64,000 nucleotides of DNA from an uncultured Muribaculaceae bacterium (GCA_964481005.1 CAYZRY010000001.1:6446-70445), one strand, 5' to 3'. Positions 232-61,024 are shown, counted from the first letter of the stretch. Numbers and translations are program-made. The notes: generated from the sequence alone by a model not told the origin.

Positions 232-762
232 ATGGTCAAGCTTCGTAAAATGCTCGGATCAGCGGATTCTCCGTACATTGTTTCATTGATGAAACTGATG
301 GAGACCCAAAGTAAAGAGACAGTTGCTAAATGGTGTTTAGATTACACCGAAGAAAATATTTTACCAATTTTTGAAAAGAGGTGTCCGAAAGATGAGCGAG
401 CGCGCCAAGCTATCGATGCCTCTAGGGATTGGTTTTTAGGTAAGAAAAAATTACCAGAAGTAAAAGATATTATTTTAAATAAGTGTCACCAAGCAGCAAG
501 AGAACTAGATAGTGATCCGGCAGCCCAGGCAGCAGCTAGAGCTTGCGGACAAGCGGCAGCATGTTTTCATACGCCAACTCATGCTTTGGGAATGGCTTTT
601 TATGGAGCGGCGGCCATTGCATATGATCAACATGGTCTTGAAGAATCGCCAGTTCTATATGATCGAATTGCCACAATTGAAGTCAGTAAAATGGAAGAAG
701 CCCTTCGTAAAATAGCTGTTCCAGATGAAGAAAACCCAGCAAAATTTAAATGGTTTTGCTAA
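232..762 (+). CDS. Hypothetical alpha-helical protein (176 aa), Ala/Gln-rich, noticeably GC-richer than its surroundings
   Basis: ORF in track. Segment ...AAQAAARACGQAAACFHTPTHALGMAFYGAAAIAY. Local GC about 40% against about 30% for the window. Confidence 0.55.
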   Translation: MVKLRKMLGSADSPYIVSLMKLMETQSKETVAKWCLDYTEENILPIFEKRCPKDERARQAIDASRDWFLGKKKLPEVKDIILNKCHQAARELDSDPAAQAAARACGQAAACFHTPTHALGMAFYGAAAIAYDQHGLEESPVLYDRIATIEVSKMEEALRKIAVPDEENPAKFKWFC

Positions 763-1689: not shown

Positions 1690-4323
1690 ATGAACTGGCA
1701 TGAAATGAGTAAAGAAGAGATTTTAGATAAATATAAAACTAGTGTTAGAAAAGGTCTTAGTGATAGTGAGGCTAAAAAGAGATTAACTAAGTATGGTTTC
1801 AATATATTACCTAAAGAAAAGAAAGATAGTATCTTTGTAATTTTCTTTAGGCAACTTATGGATCCAATCGTTTTACTACTTTTAGTAACAGTTATTTTTT
1901 CGCTTTTGATTAGAGAATACATCGATGCGATTGCAATAGCTTTTATTATTCTAGTTGATCTAGTTATGGGAACGCTTCAGGAGTGGAAGGCTGAGAAAAA
2001 TGCCGAAGCTCTTTCGAGTATTATCAAAGTAATGGTTAATGTCATCAGAGATGGCAGAGAAAGATTAATCGATTCATCACTACTTGTTCCTGGCGATATT
2101 GTTGAACTTTCTTCTGGGGTCAAAGTAAGTAGTGATATGCGTATTATCGAAGCACATAATCTCCAGATAAATGAATCGATCTTGACAGGAGAGAGTACTG
2201 CGACTGTTAAAAGTAGTGACGTATTAAAAGGCGATCATTCTATTGGTGATCGATACAACATGGCTTATTCTGGGACTTCAGTCATAACAGGAAGAGGTTT
2301 GGCAGTAGTCGTTGGAACTGGTACAAATACTGAGATTGGTAAGATTGCTGATCACATTATTTCTACTAAAGAAGCACCATCACCATTAACGGTAAGAATG
2401 AATAAATTCTCTAAACAGATTAGTTTGATGGTAGTCATTGTCGCAATCATTATAGCTATTGTTTTAGTAAGTAAAGATGTACCTAGAAATGAGATATTTT
2501 TATCGGTTATTGCTTTGTCGGTATCAGCTATGCCAGAAGGTCTTCCACTGGCATTAACGATGGCTCTTACTATCGCCTCAAACAGAATGGCGAAGAAAAA
2601 TGTCATTGTTAAAAAGCTCAGTGCAGTTGAGAGTTTGGGTAGTTGTACGGTTATTGCATCCGATAAAACAGGAACACTAACAGTAAATGAACAGACAGCT
2701 AAAAAGATAGTTTTACCAGATGATACGCTATTTAATGTAAGTGGAACTGGATATAATGATGCAGGTAAAGTTGAGGGGAAAGACCTTGGCTTGGCTGAAA
2801 AAATTGCTAAACTAGCGGCTCTTAATAACGAGGCACATTTAGATAAAATTGATGGTAAATGGATCAGTCATGGTGATTCGATTGATATTGCTTTTCTAGC
2901 TCTAGCGAAGAAGATGAAAATTGATTTAAGTAATGACATTATCGGTATTATTCCGTATGAGTCAGAAAATAAATATTCGGCAGTATTCTATCGTGATAAG
3001 AATAAAGTATACTGTAGTGTCAAAGGTTCACCAGAAGTCGTTTTAAAATTTTCTGAAACGATGGGAATTAAAAATGAAAAACTAAACATCAAAAAGATTG
3101 TCAAACAAAATGAAGACTTAGCAAAAGATGGTTATCGAGTAATTGCCATTGCTTCGGCCGAAGTAGCAAACTTCAAGGAAAAGGAAAACTATTCTCATAA
3201 AGATATTCCCAAGCTGAACTTCGATGGTTTAGTAGCTTTTATCGATCCGATAAGAAAAGAAGCAAAAAATGCTATTAGCGAATGTGCTAATGCTGGTATA
3301 AAAGTAGTAATGATAACAGGAGATCATCCGCTAACTGCCTATGCTATTGCTAAAGATTTAGAGCTTGTTAAAACTGAAGATGAAGTAGCTACTGGCAGTG
3401 ATGTTCAAAAATATTTTGATATGGGTGAAGCCGAATTTGATAAGTTTGTTGCAAGTAAGAGAATCTTTTCTCGTGTTAGTCCAACTGATAAATTAAATAT
3501 TGTTCAGTCATATAAAAGACAGGGAGAGTTTATTGCTGTTACTGGTGATGGAGTAAATGATGCTCCGGCTATCCGCAGTGCTAATATCGGTATTGCGATG
3601 GGAAGCGGAACAGATGTTGCTAAAGAAACAGCTCGTATGATTATTGTCGATGATAACTTTAACTCGATAGTAGCGGGTATCAAAGAGGGTAGAAATGCCT
3701 ACAGTAATATTCGTAAGGTTAGTTATATGCTACTATCTTGTGGTATGGCTGAGGTTTTCTTCTTTATCTTGTCACTACTTGCTAATATGGAATTGCCACT
3801 GGTTGCTATTCAGTTACTATGGTTAAATATCGTTACAGATGGATTACAAGACTTTGCTTTATCGTTTGAAAAAGCCGAACCAGATATTATGAAAAAACCA
3901 CCGATAAGTACCAAAGAAAATATTTTTAATAATGAACTTATCCGTGAAGTTGCAATAGCGGGTGGAGTAATAGGTATAGTTGTCTTTATAGTTTGGGTTT
4001 ATCTTATTAAAAATGTTGGAATGGAGGCCTATGTCGCTAGAGGTTACATCATGGCTCTAATGGTCTTTATGCAAAATGTCCATGTACTAAATTGCCGTAG
4101 TGAAGATCGTTCTGTCTTTAAAGTACCATTATCAACTAATAAATTAGTGGTTGTTACAATCATTAGTGCAATCGCACTGCAAGTAATTGTCATGGAAGTA
4201 CCATTCCTATCACAGTTTTTGAAAACTACAAGTATTCCATTTATTCATCTAGTATATCTCTTCTTAATATCATTAATTATTCTAGTAATAATGGAAATAT
4301 ATAAAAAATTAAAAAGAACTTAG
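1690..4323 (+). CDS. P-type cation-transporting ATPase (Ca2+/P2-type-like)
   Basis: DKTGTLT phosphorylation motif, TGDGVNDAPA hinge motif, about 10 TM segments, 877 aa. Confidence 0.9.
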   Translation: MNWHEMSKEEILDKYKTSVRKGLSDSEAKKRLTKYGFNILPKEKKDSIFVIFFRQLMDPIVLLLLVTVIFSLLIREYIDAIAIAFIILVDLVMGTLQEWKAEKNAEALSSIIKVMVNVIRDGRERLIDSSLLVPGDIVELSSGVKVSSDMRIIEAHNLQINESILTGESTATVKSSDVLKGDHSIGDRYNMAYSGTSVITGRGLAVVVGTGTNTEIGKIADHIISTKEAPSPLTVRMNKFSKQISLMVVIVAIIIAIVLVSKDVPRNEIFLSVIALSVSAMPEGLPLALTMALTIASNRMAKKNVIVKKLSAVESLGSCTVIASDKTGTLTVNEQTAKKIVLPDDTLFNVSGTGYNDAGKVEGKDLGLAEKIAKLAALNNEAHLDKIDGKWISHGDSIDIAFLALAKKMKIDLSNDIIGIIPYESENKYSAVFYRDKNKVYCSVKGSPEVVLKFSETMGIKNEKLNIKKIVKQNEDLAKDGYRVIAIASAEVANFKEKENYSHKDIPKLNFDGLVAFIDPIRKEAKNAISECANAGIKVVMITGDHPLTAYAIAKDLELVKTEDEVATGSDVQKYFDMGEAEFDKFVASKRIFSRVSPTDKLNIVQSYKRQGEFIAVTGDGVNDAPAIRSANIGIAMGSGTDVAKETARMIIVDDNFNSIVAGIKEGRNAYSNIRKVSYMLLSCGMAEVFFFILSLLANMELPLVAIQLLWLNIVTDGLQDFALSFEKAEPDIMKKPPISTKENIFNNELIREVAIAGGVIGIVVFIVWVYLIKNVGMEAYVARGYIMALMVFMQNVHVLNCRSEDRSVFKVPLSTNKLVVVTIISAIALQVIVMEVPFLSQFLKTTSIPFIHLVYLFLISLIILVIMEIYKKLKRT

Positions 4324-4334
4324 TTCTTTTTTTT
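4314..4334 (+). terminator. Rho-independent terminator
   Basis: AAGAAC-tta-GTTCTT followed by TTTTT, spanning the stop codon. Confidence 0.5.
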
Positions 4335-4382
4335 AGGAAAAAAATTATATATCGTCAATTATTACTTTAAGGAAGTGAATTG

Positions 4383-6449
4383 ATGCTTAGGAAATATCCG
4401 ACTGTCTTGCAGGAGGGAGCAAATGACTGTGGACCTTGTTGCTTGCTTATGATAATAAGGTCTTACGGTGGTGATTACTCACTTGAAAAACTGCGTGAAT
4501 TAACTAAAACAAATCTTGATGGAACAACAGCATTTCATTTGACATCGGCTGCCAATAGTTTAGGTTTTAGTGCTTGGACAGTAAAGGGAAGGATTAGTGA
4601 TTTAAAAAAGGAACTATTTCCGTGCATAGCTCATATCATAAATGACCAAGGATATTTACATTTCATTGTAATTAATCAAATCAAGGGAAAACACTTAATA
4701 GTTTCGGATCCAGCTATCGGTGTTAGAACAATGATGATCGAAGACTTTGAAAAGATAAGTACTGGTAATTTTATTTTGCTCAGTTTAGTTAAACATCTGC
4801 CTAAGATAAAAGAAAATAATTTTGTTAGTAATCAACTAAAAGATTTTATTTATAAGTACAGAAACTTATTCTTAAGTGTTTTAGTGATATCACTAATTTA
4901 TACTTCATTAAATATTTTTCTATCATATAGGCTTCAGCTATATATTGAAACTGTCATAAAGTTTTATTCTAAGAATAATCTTATCTTGATTAGTTTAATA
5001 GTGTTACTTGTATCGATAATAAAAATAATTAGTGATAGATTCAGATTTCAACTTATCAATTATCTTAAACATGAACTGGATGAAAAATTAATGATAGAAG
5101 CCTATGGGCAAATAATTAAGCTTCCTTATTTATACTATAAAAATAGAAGTAGTGGAGAAATAATTGCTCGCTTGCAAGACTTAGGTGAGATTAAAGAATC
5201 GATTAGTCGTATATTTGTTGGAGTATTGGTCGATTTACTTTTATCTGTTTTTGCTTTTGTAATGCTTAATAAAATTAGTTCAAAACTGACAGCAATAGTC
5301 TTAATCACAGCTATCATTTTAGTGTTAACAACTTTGATATTTAGACCACTTAGTAGTTATTATCTTAAAAGTAATAAAGAATTAAGTGCCAAATTAAACT
5401 CATATATGATTGAGTCAATTTCCAGTGTCGATACGGTCAAAGGTTTACACCTAGAAAGTTTGCTGGAAAATAACTTTTTCAAACAGTATAAAAAGCTCTT
5501 AAAAGAAAGCTATAAATTAAATAACTTGTATAGTTATGAGAATATGCTTAGAGAACTTGTTTATGATCTAGCTTTAGTTGTAATTATCTTTGTAGCAAGT
5601 CAGCTAATATTTAAAGGTTTATTAACTTTGCCTAAAATGATCACATATTTATCGTTATTGGTATATTTTTTAGAGCCGATTAAGAGTTTAATTGATATTA
5701 ACTTATCTGTTAAGGAATTAATGCTAACAAGCAGTAGACTCAATCATCTATTTGAAGTTAGTAAAGAAGAGTTAGATATTAAAAACAATTTGATAATTGA
5801 TAATTATGATATTGAGTTTAAGGATTTAAGTTATTCATATGACGGAAATAGAAATGTAATTGATAAGCTTAATTTAAAAATAAAAAGTGGTTCTAAAGTT
5901 TTTATTAGCGGAGAAAGTGGTAGTGGAAAAAGTACTTTGTTTAAACTCTTGATGGCTTATTTTAGTTACGAAGAAGGAAAAATATACATCGGTCAAAATG
6001 AAATTGCTAATTATGATTTAAGAGATCTCAGAGAAAATATTGTCTATGTCTCTCAAAGTGAGGTAATTTACAACGATACCCTATATAATAACGTGACACT
6101 GGGAAGAGTTGTGTCTTACGAAGAGTTTCTTAGCGTAGCAAAGATGACCGATACTTTAGATGTAGGTAAAGTTGCCGGGGCTAACTATAAAATCGAAGAA
6201 GCTGGTTTTAATTTAAGTGGGGGAGAGCGCCAGCGAATAATGTTAGCTAGAGCACTTTTGTCTAAGGCTAAAATATATATTTTTGATGAGAGCTTAAGTC
6301 AGTTAGATGTAGAAAGAGAAAGATTAATTTTAAAAAATATTTTTACCAATTACAAAGATTCAACTTTTATTGTCATTTCACATCGCAAAGTAAATGAAGA
6401 TTTATTTGATGAAAAGTATGTTTTGAAAGAGGGAAGATTACATGCTTGA
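4383..6449 (+). CDS. Bacteriocin/peptide ABC exporter with N-terminal C39 cysteine peptidase domain (processes double-glycine leaders)
   Basis: C39 motif QEGANDCGPCCLLMI (catalytic Cys) plus a downstream His region. TM domain. Walker A GESGSGKST, signature LSGGERQR, Walker B IYIFDES. RBS AGGAAG before ATG 4383. Confidence 0.9.
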   Translation: MLRKYPTVLQEGANDCGPCCLLMIIRSYGGDYSLEKLRELTKTNLDGTTAFHLTSAANSLGFSAWTVKGRISDLKKELFPCIAHIINDQGYLHFIVINQIKGKHLIVSDPAIGVRTMMIEDFEKISTGNFILLSLVKHLPKIKENNFVSNQLKDFIYKYRNLFLSVLVISLIYTSLNIFLSYRLQLYIETVIKFYSKNNLILISLIVLLVSIIKIISDRFRFQLINYLKHELDEKLMIEAYGQIIKLPYLYYKNRSSGEIIARLQDLGEIKESISRIFVGVLVDLLLSVFAFVMLNKISSKLTAIVLITAIILVLTTLIFRPLSSYYLKSNKELSAKLNSYMIESISSVDTVKGLHLESLLENNFFKQYKKLLKESYKLNNLYSYENMLRELVYDLALVVIIFVASQLIFKGLLTLPKMITYLSLLVYFLEPIKSLIDINLSVKELMLTSSRLNHLFEVSKEELDIKNNLIIDNYDIEFKDLSYSYDGNRNVIDKLNLKIKSGSKVFISGESGSGKSTLFKLLMAYFSYEEGKIYIGQNEIANYDLRDLRENIVYVSQSEVIYNDTLYNNVTLGRVVSYEEFLSVAKMTDTLDVGKVAGANYKIEEAGFNLSGGERQRIMLARALLSKAKIYIFDESLSQLDVERERLILKNIFTNYKDSTFIVISHRKVNEDLFDEKYVLKEGRLHA

Positions 6450-6855
6450 AATAATAGATTTTAAAGAAAGAATAAGCTGTAAAAAAATGTATTTAAAATA
6501 CATATTACTTGTATTTTTATTAGTTATGTCACTTTTTTATATAAATGAAAAATTTAAATATGATGATTATATTTTAGTAAATGGCGCATCATTTGGTGAA
6601 AAGAAAGTTGTAGCTATCATTCAAAGTAATAATTTGATTCTTTTTGAGAAGAATAATGAATTATATATTAAAAATGAAAAATTTGCTTACAGAATAAACA
6701 GTATCAAAAAAGATAAGATTATGATTGATGGTAATTATAACCAAGAAGTTATTATTGACTTAGATAAGCCAGTAAGTGATGAAGTATTTGAGCTCAAACT
6801 AATTACTTCATCAGAGCCATTTATAAATCATCTATTAAGAAAATTATGGAGGTAA
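6442..6855 (+). CDS. Small membrane-anchored protein (137 aa), possible minimal accessory or immunity factor of the exporter
   Basis: Start overlaps the ABC gene stop (ATGCTTGA). One N-terminal TM helix (YLKYILLVFLLVMSLFYI). No catalytic motif. Confidence 0.5.
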   Translation: MLEIIDFKERISCKKMYLKYILLVFLLVMSLFYINEKFKYDDYILVNGASFGEKKVVAIIQSNNLILFEKNNELYIKNEKFAYRINSIKKDKIMIDGNYNQEVIIDLDKPVSDEVFELKLITSSEPFINHLLRKLWR

Positions 6856-6856
6856 A

Positions 6857-7003
6857 GTGAAAGAGTTAAACGAAAGAGAAAGTATGGATATTATGGGTGG
6901 AGCAATGCCTTGGTGGATACCGCTTAGTATTGGTCTTGGACTACTTGCTGTCTTTGGCATCGGAGTTTGGTCAGGTTATACTCGTCCGATGAAGTGTCAT
7001 TAG
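6857..7003 (+). CDS. Double-glycine-leader bacteriocin-like precursor peptide 1 (48 aa)
   Basis: GTG start 1 nt after the upstream stop, with GGAGG 4 nt upstream. Translation MKELNERESMDIMGG|AMPWWIPLSIGLGLLAVFGIGVWSGYTRPMKCH. Leader fits L(-12) E(-8) I(-4) GG. Core is hydrophobic with GxxxG motifs. Too short for the ORF track. Confidence 0.7.
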   Translation: MKELNERESMDIMGGAMPWWIPLSIGLGLLAVFGIGVWSGYTRPMKCH

Positions 7004-7174
7004 ATGAAACACTTAAAAGTAGATGAGATGCTCCAAATTAGGGGCGGTGCAAAACTATCTGGGACATATATTAATGCCATTGTCGGAGCCGTTAAAATAG
7101 TCTTTGAAATAGGAAGAGCTTTCGGTTCATCGATAAGACGAAGCATCACGGGAACGCTATGTCAAACAAGGTAA
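7004..7174 (+). CDS. Double-glycine-leader bacteriocin-like precursor peptide 2 (56 aa)
   Basis: ATG immediately follows the TAG of peptide 1. Translation MKHLKVDEMLQIRGG|AKLSGTYINAIVGAVKIVFEIGRAFGSSIRRSITGTLCQTR. Leader has L(-12) E(-8) M(-7) I(-4) GG. Amphipathic cationic core with GxxxG. Confidence 0.7.
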   Translation: MKHLKVDEMLQIRGGAKLSGTYINAIVGAVKIVFEIGRAFGSSIRRSITGTLCQTR

Positions 7175-7293
7175 AGAGTGTTATCCTAAGCATTTTAATT
7201 CTACCTGGAATATCGTTAATCTTTACTGATCTAATTAAAAATAGTTTTATTCTCGGGGAGATACTTGGAACTATTTTACGAAGAGCTTTTTAG
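7159..7293 (+). CDS. Small hydrophobic protein (44 aa), candidate immunity protein
   Basis: Translation MSNKVKSVILSILILPGISLIFTDLIKNSFILGEILGTILRRAF. Overlaps the 3' end of peptide 2. Ends just before the terminator. Confidence 0.4.
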   Translation: MSNKVKSVILSILILPGISLIFTDLIKNSFILGEILGTILRRAF

Positions 7294-7320
7294 CAGCACA
7301 ATTGTGCTGCTTTACTTTTA
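7294..7320 (+). terminator. Rho-independent terminator closing the peptide operon
   Basis: GCAGCAC-aatt-GTGCTGC followed by a T-rich tract (tttacttttactttt). Confidence 0.6.
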
Positions 7321-7361
7321 CTTTTGATAATGATATATTAGACCCATGTTCGGAGGGTTTT

Positions 7362-8117
7362 ATGATTAAAAAAGTAGAGATCAATTACTGGAAGTTAAAA
7401 GAGTTGGTCGGTACAAGTCAAAACTATGATGAAGGATTCAATTGGCTTAGTTTTAAGTATGATGATGAATATTTAATCAAACTTGAAAAAAGCCTTTTTG
7501 GAAAAGATAAATTAATGAGTGAAGATGACTTTTCCAGATATTTAGCTTGGCGCAAGGAGCATTATCAAAGCAATCAGTTATTTGATTGCAATATTGTTCT
7601 CCAGCAGGAAGCGTTATCAAAATTACAAAACAAAGTTAAATTGACAACTTTTCCACAAGCGATTGTTTTTGTTGGACCAGCTCCATTTGGATTACTAGTT
7701 CCAAAATATGAAAACTATCAAACAATGGATAAACTAAAGTTATCATATGATGAAATGAAAAGTGCTTTCGATGCTGTTATCGATGCAAATGAAGAACTGC
7801 TTGAAAATCGTATCTATGCTAGTGAATCAGCTTATCCAGAAAATGTTGCTATCGATAGAAATAGTGGCGATGTGAAGTTAGTTGGACTTTATGGACCAAA
7901 CATTAAAACCAGTCTAATGCGCAGTAGTGGAAACGAAAACAAAGTATATGAACAAATGGTTGTAGCATACCAACTATTAAATCAGCAGTATGTAAGTAAT
8001 CCAATGGAATTTGCTAAAGAAATGGATAATACTAATCTTTATCGTATTACTGCCAAGACATTTGGCGAGAGTTTAAATCAAATAGATGTCGCTGTAAAAA
8101 AGATAGGAAGAAGATAA
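7362..8117 (+). CDS. Hypothetical protein (251 aa)
   Basis: Track ORF 7302-8117, but its first 60 nt lie inside the terminator hairpin. ATG 7362 (MIKKVEINY...) is preceded by GGAGGG. No recognisable motif. Confidence 0.55.
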   Translation: MIKKVEINYWKLKELVGTSQNYDEGFNWLSFKYDDEYLIKLEKSLFGKDKLMSEDDFSRYLAWRKEHYQSNQLFDCNIVLQQEALSKLQNKVKLTTFPQAIVFVGPAPFGLLVPKYENYQTMDKLKLSYDEMKSAFDAVIDANEELLENRIYASESAYPENVAIDRNSGDVKLVGLYGPNIKTSLMRSSGNENKVYEQMVVAYQLLNQQYVSNPMEFAKEMDNTNLYRITAKTFGESLNQIDVAVKKIGRR

Positions 8118-60810: not shown

Positions 60811-60844
60811 TGGTTTATTATATAGGTGTATTCAAACAAGAGGA

Positions 60845-61024
60845 GTAATCTAGTTGATACTTATAGAGAGAGTATGGTTGTTGTAAATACTCAGTTAAAC
60901 TAGGCGAAGACACTTGAATAAATTTGAAACGTGACATCGCGTTAAGATGAATAAGCATATGGAAATATGGAATTAAGGTGGTACCACGGGTTATGCTCGT
61001 CCTTTGGGTGACTACCTTTTTTGT
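60845..61024 (+). promoter_or_regulatory. T-box riboswitch leader upstream of hisS
   Basis: T-box sequence AATTAAGGTGGTACCACGG at 60971-60989. Candidate His specifier CAC at 60911-60913 in GAAGACACTTGAA. T-tract CTTTTTTG before the RBS AAGGAGG. Confidence 0.65.

Follow-up and report, generated by a model that had tools for sequence, protein, structure and literature searches.

What is made and exported by a small transporter cassette that sits between a P-type ATPase gene and ftsA? The question is raised by a stretch of 64,000 nucleotides from an uncultured Muribaculaceae bacterium (GCA_964481005.1, CAYZRY010000001.1:6446-70445), the whole of which is called the window here. A first-pass annotation had pointed to two short open reading frames (ORFs), named pepA and pepB in the following, behind an exporter with a C39 peptidase domain and had interpreted them as a two-peptide bacteriocin operon. 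Our analysis leans, on balance, the same way: the cassette would form a complete unit that makes and exports a class-IIb-like two-peptide bacteriocin, one whose sequence family had not been characterised before. Gene anatomy, conservation, the type of the leaders and of the exporter, the motifs, and the similarity of pepB to a third small ORF (orf44) can be read directly from the DNA and its relatives.

The cassette (4383-7311 in window numbering, all genes on the + strand) comprises five co-directional, translationally coupled genes and a terminator, and re-derivation from the sequence returned the same coordinates for its genes as the first-pass annotation. The peptidase-containing ATP-binding cassette (ABC) transporter (PCAT) of 688 amino acids (aa) is encoded at 4383..6449, with an alternative TTG start at 4380, and carries Peptidase_C39, ABC_membrane and ABC_tran domains. 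Its stop is overlapped by 8 nt by the gene of a 137-aa single-pass membrane protein (6442..6855), a candidate miniature accessory or adaptor protein of the exporter. pepA (6857..7003) encodes a 48-aa precursor with a GTG start and an upstream GGAGG ribosome-binding site, while the 56-aa pepB precursor (7004..7174) begins with an ATG placed in frame directly after the pepA TAG stop, and the tight coupling claimed for the pair is thereby borne out. The pepA precursor consists of the leader MKELNERESMDIMGG (6857-6901) and the hydrophobic 33-aa core AMPWWIPLSIGLGLLAVFGIGVWSGYTRPMKCH (6902-7000), for which net charge +2, grand average of hydropathy (GRAVY) 0.76 and helical hydrophobic moment 0.06 were calculated. 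The leader MKHLKVDEMLQIRGG of pepB (7004-7048) is followed by the cationic amphipathic 41-aa core AKLSGTYINAIVGAVKIVFEIGRAFGSSIRRSITGTLCQTR (7049-7171), with net charge +5, GRAVY 0.41 and helical hydrophobic moment 1.04; each core contains one Cys. Canonical leader spacing had been claimed for both peptides, and Leu at −12, Glu at −8, Ile at −4 and the double glycine (GG) are indeed present in both, but the hydrophobic residue at −7 is found in pepB only, the corresponding residue of pepA being Ser, followed by Met at −6. Behind pepB, and overlapping its 3′ end by 16 nt, lies orf44 (7159..7293), which encodes a leaderless hydrophobic peptide of 44 aa, a candidate immunity or decoy factor. An intrinsic terminator (7292..7321) closes the cassette, its hairpin AGCAGCACAATTGTGCTGCT (7292-7311; 8 bp stem with 5 GC pairs) being followed by the T-rich TTACTTTTAC. 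Both the small hydrophobic ORF and the terminator had already been noted behind pepB. An Rfam scan found no RNA element within the cassette.

Are the small ORFs genes at all? The whole window was scanned on both strands for ORFs with a start codon, a leader of 13-25 aa with a hydrophobic residue at −12, Glu or Asp at −8, a hydrophobic residue at −4 and GG, and a core of 20-80 aa. Exactly two ORFs, pepA and pepB, were found, compared with a mean of 0.02 in 100 second-order Markov randomisations. Further evidence came from a syntenic locus of a sister species (L018), obtained from a Logan assembly whose run accession shares a block with the PRJNA533495 runs on biogas-plant digestate. The gene order there is that of the window: HlyIII, P-type ATPase, exporter, ORFs of 140, 47, 57 and 44 aa, terminator, a 251-aa ORF, FtsA and FtsZ. 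Between the two loci, amino acid identity is 95% for FtsZ, 80% for the P-type ATPase, 76% for pepA (ratio of nonsynonymous to synonymous substitution rates, dN/dS, 0.12), 75% for pepB, with synonymous sites saturated, 59% for the exporter, 52% for orf44, which has the same length and position in both, and 42% for the 137-aa protein. A hairpin equivalent to that of the window stands at the same place in L018 with an altered stem sequence (AGCAGTGCGCAAGCACTGCT), and a terminator also follows the last cassette gene in three other loci (L036, L039 and L064). Within the window's own species, other contigs are 99.4-100% identical across the region. From the identities and the dN/dS against L018, it is evident that pepA, pepB and orf44 are conserved as proteins and under purifying selection.

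One might dismiss the small ORFs as random open frames and accept only the ABC transporter as real, given that the gene finders used for the public protein collection missed pepB and orf44 in this genome. This view is contradicted by the 0.02 such ORFs expected at random, by protein-level conservation despite saturated synonymous sites and by dozens of orthologous pairs with invariant residues, and the conservation data leave it practically no chance. Genes of the pepB and orf44 types are routinely missed by gene callers. The description of the operon as unannotated holds for pepB and orf44, for which no exact record exists, but not for pepA, which is on record in the protein collection with an NCBI source and no name; an exact look-up of the window PCAT returned no record.

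How widespread is the arrangement? For the 137-aa protein, only 11 relatives were found among 1.8 billion representative proteins, and their contigs show the same order of exporter, ~140-aa ORF and GG-leader peptide, continuing through pepB where the contig is long enough. When metagenome contigs of the Joint Genome Institute (JGI) were scanned with the pepB motif, 24 further loci were obtained; pepA lies directly upstream of pepB in all 24 and, with L018, L036, L037, L039 and L064 included, in 29/29 other pepB loci. The exporter is part of the same operon in the window and in every related locus long enough to show it, except L041. A profile built from 28 pepA sequences detected at least 272 clusters at E≤1e-3 in a collection of 5.8 billion proteins. 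Word-indexed homology searches with single peptides of 48-56 aa gave one match each despite these hundreds of relatives, which reflects a limit of sensitivity and not rarity. Among 72,556 plasmid records, no relative of pepB or of the 137-aa protein was found, and a scan of reference genome contigs with the PCAT yielded only distant transporters of 23-34% identity.

Family alignments of 28 sequences each revealed strict rules for both peptides. In pepA, the leader Gly at −1, G40, P44 and C47 are invariant and G36, the first Gly of the GxxxG motif, is kept in at least 90% of the members; the consensus reads ...F.IG(V/I)(I/L)DG(Y/F)xRPxKC(N/R). The Cys stands exactly 7 residues past the second Gly of GxxxG in the 26 cores that have the motif pattern (27 scanned), and the GRAVY of the core is ~1.2 across the family. 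In pepB, the invariant residues are I36, G37, G41, I44 and C53, with S42, R45 and R46 almost as constant, and the consensus reads (E/D)IG(R/K)(S/A)(L/F)GS(A/S)IRR, followed by five variable residues and Cys; in all complete members the Cys is exactly 12 residues past GxxxG. A relative beyond the 28-member alignment, in L064, has SxxxG in place of GxxxG. The leader profiles of the two families are alike (hhalign 2e-9). The GxxxG motifs described earlier for both cores are G36xxxG40 in pepA and G37xxxG41 in pepB, both kept across the alignments, and the single Cys noted in each core turned out to be invariant in both families. A Cys in fixed register in each peptide is a departure from textbook two-peptide bacteriocins. 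Three loci show variant leader ends (L040, 449-768; L061, 3866-4167; L062, 292-596): A-G is found in pepA of all three and in pepB of L061, A-R in pepB of L062, while pepB of L040 retains G-G. Exporters in this sub-group presumably tolerate an altered cleavage motif.

Whether these peptides belong to a known bacteriocin family depends on which part of them is compared. Full-length pepA of the window scored 23.5 bits against TIGR03949 (lactobin A/cerein 7B), above the cut-off of 21.5 bits, and this model matched 26/28 full-length pepA sequences (E≤0.1, best 6e-8) and 6/28 pepB sequences. Full-length pepA members were also matched by the lactococcin G-beta model (20/28), TIGR01847 (16/28) and PF10439 (12/28), and full-length pepB members by the lactococcin G-alpha model (9/28); one pepB member showed a weak match to the EntF induction-factor model. 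Without the leader, the window pepA core gave no match to TIGR03949 at E≤10, and none of 40 leaderless cores matched any NCBIfam bacteriocin model at E≤1; the full-length L018 ortholog of pepA also failed to match TIGR03949. For window pepB and orf44, no family match was found in Pfam or NCBIfam. The full-length family profiles of pepA and pepB had no relative among solved structures at E≤10; the only pepA hits, PsbJ-like membrane helices attributed to chance and the CtA leader at a non-significant level, were discarded. Since full-length members match bacteriocin models and leaderless cores do not, the leaders are canonical and the mature peptides form a new sequence family. This agrees with the earlier remark that the cores do not resemble named bacteriocins. 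Some relatives of pepA carry NCBI or JGI bacteriocin names and others are called 'hypothetical protein [Bacilli bacterium]'; relatives of pepA are already auto-named class IIb bacteriocins in public annotations of metagenome-assembled genomes. As the TIGR03949 match vanishes without the leader and the L018 ortholog fails, the label 'lactobin A/cerein 7B' on such relatives is best understood as reflecting the leader and a Gly-rich hydrophobic stretch, and not a demonstrated homology of the mature peptide. A lantibiotic or another ribosomally synthesised, modified peptide was considered and rejected, as no modifying enzyme is encoded in any cassette. In the open-access literature searched, no paper contained the family motif strings RPLKCN, GVIDGF or GRSLGSA, GSAIRR occurred only in two unrelated immunology papers, and no paper was found on disulfide-linked two-peptide bacteriocins or on Mycoplasma GG-leader bacteriocins.

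The third ORF was examined in the same set of related cassettes. It is present in 15/29 and always overlaps the 3′ end of pepB. Invariant in its family are a Pro of the membrane helix and, in a C-terminal (G/A)xxxG[TS]xxR motif, G37 and R41. In hhalign, its C-terminal 27 columns aligned with the C-terminal half of pepB with a score of 31.1 (E 1.5e-6, probability 90%), compared with a mean of 8.4 and a maximum of 18.0 in 200 column shuffles, 14.1 for the reversed profile and 6.8 for pepA against the third ORF. As the profile-profile score is far above these controls, the third ORF is seen as a leaderless, membrane-anchored relative of the C-terminal module of pepB, an immunity-like peptide with an apparent descent from pepB. 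The candidate immunity ORF of the first-pass annotation is in the right place and conserved with L018, but it is gone from 14 of the 29 related cassettes.

The exporter belongs to a well-known type. Its Pfam domains, Peptidase_C39 (2e-35), ABC_membrane (1e-27) and ABC_tran (2e-27), correspond to an N-terminal C39 leader peptidase, a six-helix ABC membrane domain and an ATPase domain. The closest solved relative is PCAT1 (4RY2, 9e-106), with an end-to-end alignment, followed by ComA (1e-88). The motif columns are kept, including the oxyanion Gln (Q10), C16 (DCG), H93 (HFIVI) and D109 (SDP) of the peptidase as well as Walker A/B, signature and H-loop. Evidently, the C39-ABC exporter reported ahead of the peptide genes is PCAT1-like with its active-site motifs intact. 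It scored 386.4 bits against TIGR01193 (bacteriocin_ABC), below the cut-off of 523.85 bits, and its best lineage-specific NCBIfam match was NF045998, the Mycoplasma Mbov_0121 family, with 301 bits (cut-off 500 bits). By these scores the window PCAT can be regarded as a divergent member of the superfamily of peptidase-containing ABC transporters.

For the 137-aa protein encoded next to it, no Pfam match was found. Nine of the 12 members of its family matched NF045999 (MAG1140 family, 126 positions, cut-off 35 bits) weakly, with a best E of 1.2e-5; the L018 ortholog reached 12.7 bits, below the cut-off, and the window protein itself gave no match at E≤1. These matches point to a distant relationship only between the two families. 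In an AlphaFold2 model (predicted local distance difference test score, pLDDT, 83.9), the protein is composed of one long N-terminal helix, the putative membrane anchor, and one beta-barrel, and it holds neither an alpha-helical hairpin nor a lipoyl domain. Judging from this model, it is probably a one-domain remnant or a minimal form of an HlyD-type accessory protein. The statement that no accessory protein of HlyD size is present thus stood as regards size, there being no gene for a protein of ~450 aa, but needs qualification, as the 137-aa membrane protein probably plays this part in miniature, as an accessory or adaptor. A PedC-type thiol-disulfide accessory protein was rejected for it, since it contains no CxxC motif and is modelled as a beta-barrel.

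The surroundings gave no hint of dedicated regulation. A scan of 39 window proteins and of the ±10 kb around the cassette in L018, L037 and L064 detected no histidine-kinase, response-regulator or LytTR domain, in agreement with the earlier observation that a pheromone/kinase/regulator module is missing; this argues against a pheromone role of the peptides. The stretch between the P-type ATPase gene and the PCAT (4305..4382, + strand) contains, besides the ribosome-binding site of the PCAT, a weak hairpin followed by a T8 run. In the 59-nt spacer upstream of the exporter, AAAAAGAACTTAGTTCTTTTTTTT and the ribosome-binding site AAGGAAGTGAA are kept in L018, L037 and L028, and a promoter search upstream of the PCAT found no conserved −35/−10 pair. 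The AT-rich hairpin with its T8 run (4305-4335, + strand) lies right behind the stop of the ATPase gene and is conserved in the same three loci; it could be a leaky terminator and thereby govern how strongly the cassette is expressed.

How would such a cassette work? pepA and pepB, as adjacent and coupled genes, would share one mRNA and be translated at similar levels. Their 15-residue double-glycine leaders are predicted to be recognised by the C39 domain of the exporter and cut off after GG, upon which the transporter would expel the mature peptides with the 137-aa protein (membrane helix and extracellular beta-barrel) as, probably, a stripped-down adaptor. Outside the cell, pepA, with its aromatic N-terminus, Gly-rich helix of membrane length and basic RPxKC tail, may pack through GxxxG with the cationic amphipathic pepB, and the paired peptides, having probably first docked on a membrane protein, would then insert in the membrane of the target cell and make it permeable. 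The invariant Cys of each peptide, in fixed register behind GxxxG, may link the two chains. orf44, as a membrane-anchored copy of the C-terminal module of pepB, would most likely block the surface of pepA or of the receptor to which pepB binds and so protect the producer. The fullest version of this scheme, in which the C-terminal Cys residues join pepA and pepB into a disulfide heterodimer, orf44 is a decoy that titrates pepA or the receptor, the PCAT works with a minimal adaptor of one domain that Mollicutes share, and the whole is inherited vertically as a near-core trait of an uncultured Bacilli clade, is put forward tentatively, as a rather unlikely combination.

Taken together, the class-IIb-like reading of the operon came through every in-silico test run, namely the leaders, GxxxG, the exporter and the conserved small ORFs. 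Of the features by which class IIb is recognised, adjacent co-oriented genes, GG leaders on both precursors, GxxxG in both cores and a dedicated C39 exporter are all present, and the division of labour between a hydrophobic pepA and a cationic-amphipathic pepB also speaks for a bacteriocin; an HlyD protein of ~450 aa is not present. Several further observations weigh against this reading. The mature cores match no known bacteriocin, and the class assignment rests on architecture and leaders, while cleavage, export, heterodimer formation, killing, immunity and the disulfide are steps, like the activity itself, that we infer. Bacteriocin loci as a rule differ between strains, and it is therefore unusual that ATPase, cassette and ftsA occupy the same position in the window, L018 and L037, with the cassette next to ftsA also in L055, as in a core genome, and that the peptide cores (75-76% identity with L018) have changed less than the exporter (59%) and the accessory protein (42%). 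In 14/29 cassettes the third ORF is absent and a terminator or an unrelated gene stands directly behind pepB. The adaptor part is weakened by the membrane-fusion-protein-like assignment of the barrel, which is weak by Foldseek, and by one locus (L052, 2825-4995) in which the exporter stop overlaps the pepA start and no ~140-aa accessory gene exists, so that the accessory protein is not universal in the family. Finally, the habitats are anaerobic (biogas digestate) and the cassette contains no oxidoreductase, which makes an extracellular disulfide less obvious.

The synteny, the conserved cores, the missing immunity-like ORF and a Cys pair in anaerobic habitats keep two rivals alive. According to one of them, which we hold to be unlikely, the peptides are no weapons but a lineage-wide, vertically inherited pair acting on the own population, as a signal or in a developmental or cannibalism-type control of sporulation or division. 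The syntenic chromosomal site beside ftsA/ftsZ in at least 3 species would suit such a role, as would the location of the cassette elsewhere among sporulation and housekeeping genes (SpoIIIAH, GerE, YabP, YqfD), cores better conserved than the export machinery, an immunity-like ORF missing from half of the cassettes and the lack of any copy on the 72,556 plasmid records. Adjacency to division genes is not universal, though, and neither a sensor kinase, a response regulator nor another receptor gene was found in the proteins and flanks scanned; moreover, a pepA core close to a membrane-spanning helix would make a poor diffusible signal, and GxxxG in both peptides is the signature of pore-forming pairs. 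The other rival, an improbable one in our estimate, keeps the peptides in the producer membrane, where after removal of the leader they would serve as small subunits or regulators of a complex, in which the 137-aa protein and orf44 might take part. The extreme hydrophobicity of pepA speaks for it, as do the relation of orf44, a membrane peptide, to pepB and the joint conservation and strong constraint of all parts; yet known PCAT cargos, bacteriocins and pheromones, are released products, an ATP-driven exporter with a leader peptidase is a costly route for a 33-aa helix, and no partner membrane protein is conserved beside the cassette.

One could also split the pair, with pepA as a one-peptide class II bacteriocin and pepB as an induction factor or helper peptide sent through the same transporter. 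PGAP-type models do recognise pepA far more often than pepB, and the single weak EntF match fits an induction factor; this and the other pepB matches are, however, leader-driven. Furthermore, pepB with its core of 35-43 aa is amphipathic and has an invariant GxxxG and Cys of its own, unlike short unstructured induction peptides, its cognate kinase or regulator was not found in the proteins and flanks scanned, and the two genes always form an adjacent pair, all of which makes this division very improbable.

What kind of organism carries the cassette? In L064, it stands in the context of a penicillin-binding-protein transpeptidase, SpoIIIAH, GerE, Germane, YabP, YqfD and a Mur ligase, and the window encodes YceG, a polysaccharide deacetylase, SepF and DivIVA. 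The sporulation and Mur genes of L064 and the cell-wall and division genes of the window indicate that the hosts, uncultured low-GC Bacilli, are walled and at least some of them spore-forming. In L064 (6156-7328) and also in L065-L067, a gene with holin-like Phage_holin_5_2 and Amidase_3 domains lies directly upstream of the exporter. L041 (2319-3004) has a pepA/pepB pair, but the 2.3 kb ahead of it encode a 376-aa signal-peptide protein and neither an exporter nor a ~140-aa protein; an unrelated 120-aa ORF begins 7 nt behind its pepB.

In the window, all non-nested ORFs of at least 110 aa are on the + strand, and the gene content is of the housekeeping kind (ftsA/Z/K, sepF, divIVA, dnaG, sigA, topA, and hisS with a T-box leader at 60831-61007); across its full length (1-64000), no sign of a mobile element was seen around the cassette. 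The 251-aa ORF between the terminator and ftsA (7362-8117, + strand) matched nothing in Pfam or NCBIfam; its L018 ortholog has 45% identity with dN/dS 0.22, and in L037 and L055 the gene is absent and ftsA follows the cassette directly. At the beginning of the window (232-762, + strand), an Imm-5-like putative immunity protein (PF21805, 1.5e-39) is encoded, of a kind linked to polymorphic toxin systems, with a tRNA gene (768-841, + strand) immediately downstream.

If the peptides are active, they would represent a large untapped family of two-peptide bacteriocins, with the at least 272 sequence clusters mentioned above, from uncultured Bacilli of biogas reactors and other metagenomes. Their clear sequence rules, with invariant GxxxG, Pro and Cys in fixed spacing, suit the study of peptide pairing and immunity, for which the apparent pepB origin of orf44 suggests a simple decoy mechanism. 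The 137-aa partner would define the minimal adaptor needed by a peptidase-ABC exporter and would offer a first clue to the function of the unannotated mycoplasma gene pair MAG1140/Mbov_0121. A change of paradigm would follow only if the peptides formed a covalent dimer with orf44 as a decoy, or served no antimicrobial purpose.

It remains to compare the cassette with known systems, beginning with its exporter. PCAT1 of Clostridium thermocellum and ComA of Streptococcus resemble the window PCAT over the full length and share its C39 catalytic and ATPase motifs. PCAT1 serves a single longer cargo (CtA) and has no known accessory gene, and ComA works with the ~450-aa ComB; the window transporter differs in being coupled to a 137-aa protein and in scoring below the TIGR01193 cut-off. 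Compared with the HlyD/membrane-fusion adaptors, including LcnD, ComB and PlnH, the bacteriocin accessory proteins, the model of the 137-aa protein may correspond in the N-terminal anchor and the barrel, an assignment weak by Foldseek, and lacks the hairpin and lipoyl domains. The same pairing of exporter and mini-protein seems to be present in Mollicutes as the Mycoplasma pair NF045998 and NF045999, both scores being below the cut-offs; no paper on the function of Mbov_0121/MAG1140 was found in the literature searched.

As for the peptides, window pepA resembles the lactobin A/cerein 7B family (TIGR03949) in its full-length score and differs from it in the mature core. Likewise, full-length members match the alpha and beta peptides of lactococcin G/enterocin 1071 (NF038035, NF038034, PF11632) weakly and through the leader, whereas the cores do not. 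The class IIb bacteriocins of lactic acid bacteria, such as lactococcin G/enterocin 1071, plantaricin EF and JK, have adjacent co-transcribed genes, GG leaders, GxxxG, a small immunity gene and C39-ABC export; GxxxG is thought to mediate helix-helix pairing, and in one partner the N-terminus is aromatic and the C-terminal tail basic. The cassette has in common with them the gene pair, the GG leaders, GxxxG, a partner with aromatic N-terminus and basic tail, a small downstream gene and the C39-ABC exporter. It differs in its unlike cores, in the invariant fixed-register Cys of each peptide, in an accessory protein of 137 and not ~450 aa, in an immunity-like ORF that is related to pepB and often absent, and in its chromosomal position, syntenic across species. 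In short, the architecture and the leaders are classical, while the mature peptides, the miniature accessory protein, the apparently pepB-derived third ORF and the invariant Cys set this cassette apart.

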